From a virus (lineage: Duplodnaviria > Heunggongvirae > Uroviricota > Caudoviricetes): a DNA stretch of 64,000 nt. The notes beneath the pieces were generated by a model. That model worked only from the letters and a program-made list of their open reading frames with translations, did no database searches and was not told the origin of the DNA. The DNA lies in the IMG/VR virus record IMGVR_UViG_2778260992_000001. One strand, written 5' to 3'. The position numbers and the translations under genes are program-made. Positions 3,208-4,795 of the stretch are shown in pieces; the stretch's first letter is position 1, and every line of letters begins with the position of its first letter.

Positions 3208-3392
3208 TTTGTTCTGGCGAGTGTAATTAACCTGCTTCTGTATATAAATAACTACATATTAATTATTAATATACGGAAGCAGGCTGTTTTGTATCAGAGA
3301 CTCCCAGACCTGAACACCACTACAGAATCCACTAGAACCCCTTCTCAGACGCTTTAAAATCGATTTTATGAACCACTTTAAGGAAAACTAAC

Positions 3393-3623
3393 ATGTCATA
3401 CCCGACCAATGTTGTTGCGCTCGTAGAGAGCGATTTTCTGGCTAAGGCTCGTGAAATGATGAAAGATCGCGAGCAGGCTTTCAACTTGTACGAATGGGCA
3501 ATTAAGTGCTTGCATCTTGGGGAGCATCGCGAACTTGTTGAACAGCTTTTAGGTGAGTTGATCAACGAGGTGTTTGCCTTGAATGTTCAACTACATGGTC
3601 GAGAAAATAACCAATCGAAATGA
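3393..3623 (+). CDS. hypothetical small protein
   Basis: 76-aa ORF with RBS aaggaaa upstream. Confidence 0.4.
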   Translation: MSYPTNVVALVESDFLAKAREMMKDREQAFNLYEWAIKCLHLGEHRELVEQLLGELINEVFALNVQLHGRENNQSK

Positions 3624-4120
3624 TAGATAAGTACAAACTATTCATAAGATGGATTGTAAGTGCTAAGATCTGATAGTTTCCAGTCGTAGACTGGAGACTC
3701 GACCTGATGGGTGGGGGTAAGCGTCACTGGCGTCAGGTTTAAAAAAGCTCACTACCAGCGTAGAACCGGTGCCGTTTAGGTGTCGGGGAAGGGGGAACCA
3801 AAGTGAGCGGAGACAAGGGTCACTTTATGATTGTCGAGTCTGGGATGTTTCGAGAGGTTGAATCCAGTACTCCCCTTCATAAAGTGTGGGAAGATCTCGG
3901 TTCTGGGGTGCTGTCATCCATAACTTCCCAAGTCTAAGCTGGCAGTAGACTTAGACCATAGCTTTTCAGGTTATGAAACGACCAGGTTGGTGAGGAATTT
4001 TATACTCACCTCCCTGGGAGAGTATTACCTGAAAAGACAACCTCTCACTTCGTTCGAGGTGAACTTCACTCACTTCGTTCGTTCAGTTCAGGTTTATAAA
4101 AACCTGTACTGGGAAGTAAT
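3624..4120. other. ~500-bp ORF-free region; candidate structured non-coding RNA or regulatory region
   Basis: no ORF of 60 aa or more on any frame; several G-rich tracts and short direct repeats (cacttcgttcg x2). Confidence 0.3.
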
Positions 4121-4204
4121 TTGTTTATTTTAATAATTATTACACGCACGCGTGTGCGCACGCGCGAGGAAAAAATCGGCGCGGCGCTTGATTCAGGAGT
4201 TTAT

Positions 4205-4795
4205 ATGACGTCGAAGACACCAGCCCGGTCGCAAGCAAAAACTCGCAAAAAAGACAAAAACAAAAATTCTCCCCGCACCAATCCCACAACGCCTGTCGTA
4301 GAGTTCAATCCCCAGCTTAAAACCGTGAAAATCTTCAGTGATGGCTCTTGCCTTAAAAATCCGGGTGGCCCGGGCGGTTACGGTATAGTTCTCCAGTATC
4401 GTGGTGAGGAACGCGAGTTCTCAGATGGTTTTCATAGCACCACCAATAACCGCATGGAGATGATGGGGGCACTTATCGGGCTGGAGCGTTTGAAATATCC
4501 ATGCAACGTTATTTTGCACTCTGATAGCCAGTATCTGAAAAACGGCATGACACAGTGGATGAAATGGTGGAAACGCAATGGATGGATGACTTCTGACAAA
4601 AAACCGGTAAAGAATGTTGATCTGTGGAAGCGTCTGGATGAGGCCGCAAGTCGACATAATGTTCGCTGGAAGTGGGTTAAAGGTCACGCCGGGCATCGTG
4701 AAAATGAAATATGTGATCGACTCGCGAAGATCGCAGCTTTTTCCGCAGCAGATATGCCTCACAAGAAAGATATTGGTTTTGTTTATAACAAGTAG
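4205..4795 (+). CDS. rnhA: ribonuclease HI with basic N-terminal extension
   Basis: translation matches RNase HI along its length ([51 protein letters not shown]); RBS caggag before ATG 4205. Confidence 0.8.

Follow-up and report, generated by a model that had tools for sequence, protein, structure and literature searches.

A large structured non-coding RNA gene as a core feature of SSU5-like phage-plasmids

Locus and main features

The stretch of DNA analysed here, called the window below, comprises 64,000 nucleotides (nt) of a Caudoviricetes virus (IMG/VR record IMGVR_UViG_2778260992_000001). Within it we studied a gap between two coding genes of the plus (+) strand, a 76-amino-acid (aa) open reading frame (ORF) at 3393-3623 and a ribonuclease (RNase) HI gene, rnhA, at 4205-4795. 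Around the gap the Escherichia phages PhiR41_1, CMS-2020a and Cyrano are 97% identical (Cyrano 96-97%) and Salmonella phage SSU5 is 83% identical, and the E. coli plasmid pPSUO78_2 (CP012114.1) is 100% identical to the gap region. These matches place the window, to judge from sequence, among the SSU5/pHCM2-type phage-plasmids. The initial annotation had described 3624-4120 as a region flanked by coding genes, lacking any ORF of 60 aa or more, and as a candidate structured non-coding RNA (ncRNA) or structured leader. The description of the locus is accurate: on neither strand does an ORF in 3624-4120 reach 60 aa, the longest being 44 aa (3803-3937, +) and 48 aa (3987-4133, +).

The ncRNA proposal itself was supported by compensatory base changes and by a discrete transcript, and its coordinates could be refined into a promoter at 3624-3675, an RNA running from about 3676 to about 4120-4135, and a separate rnhA leader at 4143-4187. 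With a probability of roughly 0.72, we read the gap as a ~445-nt structured ncRNA gene of the + strand, founder of a family that we call F1 and a core feature of SSU5-like elements, whose product most likely acts in trans. That the RNA exists and is under selection is the solid part of this reading. The features of the gene are as follows.

3641-3669, + strand: sigma-70-type promoter, with -35 TTCATA (3641-3646), a 17-bp spacer and extended -10 TGcTAAGAT (3661-3669)
3676-3698, + strand: 5'-terminal hairpin H1, free in sequence with its pairing kept
3701-3739, + strand: helix H2, a long hairpin with invariant AUGGGUGGRGG; 15 pairs, 5 of them compensatory
3747-3808, + strand: domain closed by H3 (GCUCACU/AGUGAGC), holding the unpaired UACCAGCG, hairpin H4 and the purine-rich GGGGAAGGGGGAACC (3785-3799)
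3810-4046, + strand: central multi-helix domain, closed by long-range pairing of 3810-3820 with 4040-4046
4046-4081, + strand: direct repeat CACUUCGUUCG (4046-4056 and 4071-4081), flanking a tetraloop hairpin GAGG-UGAA-CUUC (4056-4067)
4083-4119, + strand: 3' hairpin H18, with variable apical CAGGUUUAUAAAAACCUG (4089-4106), overlapping the conserved CUGGGAAGUAA (4109-4119)
4120-4142, + strand: A/T-rich spacer of variable length and sequence, U-rich on the RNA strand, at the border of a variable gene slot

Folding and covariation in the gap

Stem-forming segments and a short direct repeat had both been noticed in the gap, and both are confirmed. For the + strand of 3624-4205 the folding energy is -214.1 kcal/mol, compared with -167.8 +/- 6.1 kcal/mol for dinucleotide shuffles (z = -7.6), and the 450-nt core alone gives z = -5.2. 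The minus (-) strand of 3624-4205 reaches -175.1 kcal/mol (z = -6.0), which is 39 kcal/mol worse than the + strand. The repeat CACTTCGTTCG occurs at 4046-4056 and at 4071-4081; both copies are invariant in 50 relatives, although chance alone could give this count for an 11-mer with one mismatch.

A consensus structure of 135-142 pairs was derived with RNAalifold from 50 relatives that are 86-100% identical, and slid controls were made by shifting the 3' partners by 1-3 columns. Compensatory base changes in relatives, which had been suggested as a check on the ncRNA proposal, proved abundant. Among the 50 sequences, standard pairs occupied 98.8% of the cells of 142 pairs, compared with 37-49% in slid controls, changes on both sides were seen at 14 pairs, compared with 2-4, and the covariation score was reached by none of 500 shuffles. 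When members down to 67% identity were included, 42 of the 142 pairs were compensatory (7-14 in slid controls), with new support for H3, both parts of H8, H10, H12, H13 and H15. Locus L241 (79% identical; a Logan SRR8137545 contig) was left out because it would give false G-U 'covariation': essentially every C is changed to T, the called gene does not translate to the query, and it looks like an assembly of bisulfite-converted reads.

The predicted structure consists of the 5' hairpin and about 17 helices, many of which are supported by covariation. In H1, six of nine pairs have changed on both sides, for example TTTCCAGT/ACTGGAGA, GCTGGCAGA/TCTGCCAGC and GATTTCGA/TCGAAATC, and H2 occurs as GACCUGA/UCAGGUU, GGUCUGG/CCAGACU and GGCAGA/UCUGCU. 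H3 has three compensatory pairs (ACCUGYU/AGCAGG in relatives L237 and L243), and the UACCAGCG in its domain is conserved and unpaired. The central domain contains H8/H9 (3821-3886), H10-H12 (3887-3930), H13 (3932-3956) and H14/H15 (3962-4036), with at least 10 compensatory pairs in H8/H9, three in H10 (where UGGGAAG/CUUCCCA becomes AGGAAGG/CCUUCCU), two in H12, six in H13 and two in H15; its closing helix is invariant, so covariation neither supports nor contradicts it. Further 3', the tetraloop hairpin reads GAGG-GAAA-CCUC in L237 and L243, and the apical stem of H18 alternates between GGUUU/AAACC, GGGG/CCCC and GGGA/UUCC. Many invariant G-U pairs and GC/GU/AU series are found on the + strand, and we take this strand to be the folded one because its G-U pairs would be A-C mismatches on the other.

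Three further pairings were considered and rejected. An 8-bp helix using the second repeat copy is not kept in the divergent L237 and L243. A switch or terminator pairing of CUUCCCA (3924-3930) with the 3' segment UGGGAAGU (4110-4117) was discarded because changes in L237 and L243 are compensated in the 5' partner only, and a pseudoknot of GAAGGGG with CCCCUUC is, by eye, not compensated in L237.

Conservation, distribution and the downstream slot

The element is carried by 687 PLSDB plasmids, 677 of them typed as non-mobilizable, from Klebsiella, Escherichia, Enterobacter, Salmonella, Citrobacter, Cronobacter and other hosts, and by 12 phage records. Of 5426 complete E. coli genomes 232 contain it, and 232 of the 234 matches lie on plasmids; the E. 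coli plasmids listed with it are 72-120 kb long and leave the site without any annotation. Among species-representative genomes only two loci were found, both in Kluyvera and both with the RNA. A protein search with the upstream ORF uncovered more distant members, L239 (85% identical), L243 (70%) and L237, L238 and L240 (67%). At loci whose RNase H is 38-49% identical, the upstream genes are tightly packed and no element was found.

The borders of the conserved region are sharp and the same in every clade, CTCGACCTGAT (3698) on the 5' side and CTGGGAAGTAA (4119) on the 3' side. The core (3698-4120) is 90.4-95.7% identical to six relatives in which the flanking genes show 73-82% nucleotide identity, the exception being rnhA in L035 (92%); in the five diverged relatives rnhA is 73-78% identical. 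At four-fold degenerate sites the flanking genes are only 24-56% identical, which is near saturation. The region is thus more conserved than its flanking genes, the opposite of the lack of conservation that would have spoken against an RNA. Because its borders are identical across clades, this pattern indicates that purifying selection acts on the non-coding sequence, unpaired stretches included, and it is unlike recent transfer. Selection on the RNA sequence, loops included, is far stronger than selection on the neighbouring proteins.

Downstream of the element, rnhA is the usual but not an obligatory neighbour. The element is followed by betT in pEH4236 (Enterobacter; L171), by an opposite-strand gene in pCFSAN006211 (Salmonella; L172) and L245, and in L237 by a 200-aa gene without known role and then a Tad2-like (anti-Thoeris-like, weak Pfam hit) gene. 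It is nevertheless 91-95% identical in pEH4236 and pCFSAN006211, 93% in L245 and 67% in L237. The RNA is kept where other genes replace rnhA and is therefore not an rnhA leader, and the structured-leader alternative raised in the initial annotation fits poorly with an element that stays intact where the downstream gene is swapped or inverted. Judging by this variety of downstream genes, a variable gene slot adjoins the RNA at its 3' border; the slot was seen to hold rnhA, betT, minus-strand hypothetical genes, or the 200-aa and Tad2-like genes (L237/L238).

Upstream, the picture is constant. In 60 of 62 metagenome loci with the phrog_5343 ORF, to which the 76-aa ORF belongs, a match to the F1 RNA or to a second RNA type, F2 (described below), lies directly downstream, counting one 31-nt stub at a contig end; of the two loci without a match, one has a contig that ends inside the ORF. 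The constant neighbour of the RNA is the 76-aa ORF, not rnhA.

Promoter and ends of the RNA

Between the stop codon at 3623 and the first helix, the sequence is free except for the promoter positions and a TAAGTA upstream of the -35. Columns without variation among the 50 relatives comprise the -35 TT, the TA..AT in the -10 (3664-3669) and the TAAGTA; the TG ahead of the -10 is present in most clades, and the divergent L237 and L239 have an identical layout. A simple consensus promoter scan of the window missed this conserved -35/-10 pair. The RNA would start near 3676, at the foot of the 5'-terminal hairpin.

The 3'-end region is probably 4120-4142. In most clades a U-rich tract starts 3-8 nt after the last helix, and similarity to relatives with other downstream genes stops at window position 4131 or 4178. 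We infer a 3' end at about 4120-4135 from the conservation border, from these breakpoints in relatives and from the drop in RNA sequencing (RNA-seq) signal at rnhA.

Transcription in lysogens

Expression was assessed from strand-resolved RNA-seq data published for a Cyrano-carrying E. coli LF82 (PMC9928086 Table 1, S1 Table), in which CYRAN_81 is an annotated ORF inside the element. In stationary LB culture, CYRAN_81 reached 117 fragments per kilobase per million (fpkm), compared with 9.5 for the upstream ORF and 8.4 for rnhA (PMC9928086). After 6 h in THP1 macrophages its log2(fpkm+5) values were 10.35 and 10.30, with the flanks at 5.2/5.0 and 5.0/4.8 (PMC9928086). Calculated from these values, the element exceeds both flanks 12-14-fold in LB and ~35-45-fold in macrophages, and the transcript level varies ~10-fold between conditions. 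CYRAN_81 is given at 12x, the putative master repressor at 10x, and the 76-aa ORF is weakly expressed in lysogeny (PMC9928086).

These data show a discrete transcript that is confined to the gap and made in the lysogenic plasmid state. The initial annotation had named a discrete abundant transcript as a check and the absence of any transcript as a ground for abandoning the proposal; the region is transcribed, and in Cyrano the signal is confined to the gap. Elsewhere in the same data, CYRAN_43 (a 'hypothetical protein') lies 723-fold above the prophage background in LB, far above everything else (PMC9928086), and could represent a further RNA missing from the annotation or the transcript of a toxin-antitoxin system.

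F2, an unrelated RNA in the equivalent slot

Gene order is unchanged in a sister lineage of Klebsiella phage-plasmids, where the gap measures ~580 nt; in pKSB1_9A_3 (L084 2348-2928), for example, the RNase H is 51% identical and the small ORF ~46-49% identical. This gap holds the ~480-nt F2 RNA, found in 30 PLSDB records (loci with F2: L084, L164-L170, L227-L235 and L242). An nhmmer search with the F1 profile detected no similarity at the F2 loci, a covariance model of the F1 5' domain run with filters off found nothing there (best E ~1), and Rfam had no match in the F2-type L084 and L242. The F2 gap folds with z = -8.9. Its 13 distinct sequences gave a structure of 155 pairs, 97.4% paired (37-45% in controls), with 13 compensatory pairs (0-3 in controls). 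Like F1, F2 has a 5' hairpin and, following a TAAGTA palindrome, a promoter-like layout, and it is likewise kept where rnhA is absent.

The distribution of F1 and F2 disagrees with the phylogeny of the ORF beside them. An F2-like RNA is found at a locus with a small ORF 69% identical to that of the window, whereas F1 is retained at loci with 59% identity, and in L242 a divergent F2-type RNA stands beside an F1-like small ORF. Because of the first two cases, F1 and F2 behave as exchangeable cassettes and not as the ends of one divergence series.

Neighbouring genes and repeats

The gap sits in a replication and nucleotide-metabolism module. On the + strand, a DNA-metabolism block runs in the order DnaQ-like exonuclease, Dam-like methyltransferase, 76-aa ORF, gap and RNase HI; RepA, a helicase, a primase and a ribonucleotide reductase are encoded elsewhere on the replicon. 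The features next to the RNA are listed here.

3393-3623, + strand: small ORF of 76 aa, phrog_5343 (E = 7e-53), directly upstream of the RNA
3627-3641, no strand assigned: degenerate palindrome copy ATAAGTACAAACTAT (GGTAAGTACTTACC in SSU5), centred ~43 bp upstream of the predicted RNA start
4143-4204, + strand: rnhA leader outside the RNA core, with GC-rich alternating purine-pyrimidine CACGCACGCGTGTGCGCACGCGCG, an A-run, GGCGCGGCGC and a Shine-Dalgarno sequence
4205-4795, + strand: RNase HI with a lysine-rich N-terminal extension (PF00075, E = 1e-44, residues 40-178)

The product of the 76-aa ORF is predicted to form three helices (predicted local distance difference test score, pLDDT, 79.6). 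A comparison of this fold with the PDB gave no meaningful match (all E > 5), which leaves the idea of a Rop-like 76-aa protein unsupported. The 224-aa ORF with a TTG start at 4121-4795 is rnhA, which truly begins with the ATG at 4205. The protein has a lysine/arginine-rich extension of ~40 aa (4205-4320) preceding its Pfam RNase_H domain (residues 40-178), and the F2 lineage RNase H has an equivalent in-frame extension (L084 2929-2997) that PGAP left unannotated. The GC-rich rnhA leader (4143-4187) is conserved only where rnhA follows and is absent in L171. Its CACGCACGCGTGTGCGCACGCGCG tract (4143-4187) is conserved, Z-DNA-like and hairpin-forming, and the A-run after it varies from ~5 to 10 in length among near-identical relatives; tract and A-run could be slippage-prone or regulatory.

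Two other repeats were noted. A perfect AT-rich inverted repeat of ~59 nt lies at 3227-3287, just after the Dam-like methyltransferase gene; cmscan of this repeat gives miRNA-like noise only, and it could serve as a bidirectional terminator or bind a protein. The second is an AT-rich palindrome with the core GTAAGTAnnTAC, extended to TAGGTAAGTA-NN-TACTTACCTA, which occurs in 14 copies at <=2 mismatches (1.6 expected; at most 5 in 100 shuffles). Its 12-mers lie at window positions 2587, 4799, 9769, 23057, 26216, 30583, 35874, 37381, 42872, 49377, 56296 and 60509, and most of the copies checked occupy short gaps that directly follow a stop codon. The palindrome may act as a dispersed operator, comparable to the C1 operators of P1, or as an intercistronic RNA hairpin or processing site. 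The copy at 3627-3641 may be an operator or activator site.

Discussion

A covariance-model scan for a known family, suggested as a check at the outset, was negative. Rfam 15 (4227 models, among them C4, RNAI, 6S, CsrB, GOLLD, ROOL, OLE, raiA, HEARO, riboswitches and ribozymes) gave no match at the gathering threshold in the whole window; at E up to 10 it returned miRNA-like noise only, none of it covering the core, and the relative L237 had no match either. The negative scan therefore means that the RNA is undescribed, not that it is absent. ARAGORN found no tRNA or tmRNA in the window, and a full-text literature search found no description of the RNA, its only trace being the mis-annotated 'hypothetical protein' CYRAN_81. 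We regard F1 as a new RNA family within a loosely known group, the large structured ncRNAs that phages carry and whose function is not known.

We consider it most likely that the F1 RNA acts in trans through its three-dimensional fold, because its loops are near-invariant, no linked regulated gene or conserved ORF was found at the locus, and no antisense target was found in the remaining 109 kb of the element, where the best hit scored 24.3 bits and shuffled queries average 26.1 with a maximum of 28.2. The RNA might bind or sequester protein as a ribonucleoprotein (RNP) scaffold, as 6S, CsrB and OLE do, or it might form a self-assembling or catalytic particle, as ROOL and GOLLD do; to these two modes together we give slightly less than even odds, and what the rivals discussed below leave over falls to explanations outside this list. 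In either mode it would be needed while the phage-plasmid is dormant, for plasmid or prophage maintenance or for manipulation of the host. It is with similar reserve, a little short of an even chance, that we propose F1 as an undescribed class of complex RNA with an activity or a protein partner of its own, be it as ribozyme, RNP or self-assembling particle, expressed in lysogeny and replaceable by F2 as a cassette.

Several points weigh against this interpretation. A trans-acting RNP is reached by exclusion of the alternatives, and neither experiment nor homology points to a function or a partner of F1. The positions given for both ends of the RNA are predictions, and a scan of the + strand gave no canonical intrinsic terminator. 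In the 3' third, most helices do not vary among close relatives and align uncertainly with the divergent members, which leaves most of the 3' domain without covariation support. Expression was read as a gene-level count over an annotated ORF of 135 nt and not as a coverage profile. The antisense search had the element's own genome as its scope.

The alternative that survives best, although we think it unlikely, is an immunity-type RNA like C4 of P1/P7 or CI of P4, constitutive in lysogens, processed from a longer leader, pairing with repeated sites on phage transcripts and blocking downstream lytic or anti-repressor genes; the F1 and F2 cassettes would then be alternative specificities. Such a role would agree with expression in lysogens that matches that of the master repressor, with the operator-like palindrome at the promoter, with a direct repeat flanking the complementary segment CGAGGUGA, and with an SSU5 Ant gene ~1.7 kb downstream. 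Swappable specificity modules would also be expected to depart from the phylogeny of the neighbouring ORF, as F1 and F2 do. However, at 445 nt and with near-invariant loops the RNA is far larger and more constrained than immunity RNAs (~70-80 nt), and the Rfam C4 model has no match. Complementarity to the other 109 kb is not above that of shuffles, the pairing of the second repeat copy is lost in L237 and L243, and the downstream genes vary.

A cis-acting structured leader, attenuator or riboswitch-like, of rnhA or another downstream gene is improbable. In most members the element does lie directly upstream of rnhA on the same strand, a U-rich tract follows its last helix, and an abundant transcript with low rnhA is what an attenuator would give. 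Yet it remains 91-95% identical where betT or an opposite-strand gene replaces rnhA, and F2 behaves likewise; rnhA has its own, separately conserved GC-rich leader, and no riboswitch or leader family of Rfam matches.

Slightly less probable still is a primer like RNA II of ColE1, which would form a persistent R-loop at its 3' end, be processed by RNase HI and prime DNA synthesis at a second origin, lytic or copy-up. The position inside a replication and nucleotide-metabolism module with RNase HI as the usual neighbour speaks for this idea, as do a size and complexity resembling RNA II (~550 nt), a G-rich first half (skew +0.27) and the A/T-rich stretch that follows the RNA. Against it, a RepA-type origin lies elsewhere on the replicon, the cumulative GC skew rises monotonically through the element with no inflection, inspection by eye revealed no conserved antisense promoter, and Rfam RNAI has no match. 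The DNA just 3' of the RNA is the least conserved part and the element is kept without rnhA, and constitutive high expression in lysogens at ~5.5 copies is unlike a firing origin.

We give very little weight to a DNA-level element (a binding-site array, oriT, pac site or single-strand origin) with inverted repeats that only resemble an RNA fold. A long conserved non-coding stretch rich in inverted repeats, with a dispersed palindrome at its 5' edge, could suggest one, but the pairing is strand-specific (the G-U pairs of the + strand are A-C mismatches opposite), the locus has a conserved promoter and yields a discrete transcript, covariation supports the long-range nested helices, typing classes the plasmids as non-mobilizable and there is no skew signal. 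Least probable of all is a small protein, the 44-aa CYRAN_81 (3803-3937), which is annotated in one record (Cyrano) and listed as a transcribed 'moron', since its ORF starts with GTG, is frameshifted or interrupted in 13 of the 50 relatives and is broken in L059, L070, L239, L243 and L237 though the nucleotides are conserved. Each of the other ORFs of at least 10 aa on both strands is broken in at least two members, so that the short coding gene which might have explained the gap away was not found.

An RNA of this kind matters for several reasons. SSU5/pHCM2-type phage-plasmids are present in ~4% of complete E. coli genomes and as hundreds of Klebsiella, Enterobacter and Salmonella plasmids, some carry resistance genes, and how they maintain lysogeny and the plasmid state is poorly known. 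F1 is their strongest-conserved non-coding feature, conserved well beyond the neighbouring proteins, and is common in clinical enterobacteria; being made in dormancy and induced in macrophages, it offers a testable handle on phage-plasmid biology. Large bacterial RNAs with such structure and loop conservation have repeatedly proved to be ribozymes, RNP cores or unusual assemblies, and a new one in the genetically tractable E. coli would be of value for RNA biology. That one conserved slot holds two unrelated RNAs also makes one ask which selective pressure favours a large folded RNA there.

Among known systems, 6S and CsrB are abundant, stable, trans-acting RNAs with growth-state-dependent levels that take effect by binding protein, and F1, whose action in trans we infer, is like them in part. 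F1 is multi-branched, whereas 6S is a single bulged duplex and CsrB an array of GGA hairpin loops, and neither model matches. ColE1 RNA II is likewise a structured plasmid transcript of 450-550 nt with a link to RNase H and a G-rich 5' half. F1 differs in that no antisense RNA I, no conserved downstream origin segment and no skew signal were found at its locus, and its replicon, unlike ColE1, has RepA and can dispense with RNase H as a neighbour. With C4 of P1/P7 and CI of P4, F1 shares expression from a plasmid-prophage in lysogeny, a host-type promoter, direct repeats around a complementary segment and alternative 'alleles' in related elements; it is ~6 times larger, has no model match and no target complementarity above shuffles in its own genome, and is not tied to an ant operon.

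The closest likeness is to GOLLD and ROOL, and in part to OLE and raiA, which are also several hundred nt long, with covarying helices, conserved unpaired stretches and no ORF. Unlike all four, F1 does not match the Rfam models, and it differs from GOLLD and ROOL in residing on phage-plasmids of Enterobacteriaceae, with no tRNA gene in the window, and in being expressed in lysogeny where GOLLD and ROOL are reported around lysis. RNAs of the GOLLD/ROOL type and F1 alike are borne by phages or prophages and have functions that cannot be deduced from sequence. Although a member of none of these families, F1 most resembles the orphan large phage ncRNAs represented by GOLLD and ROOL.

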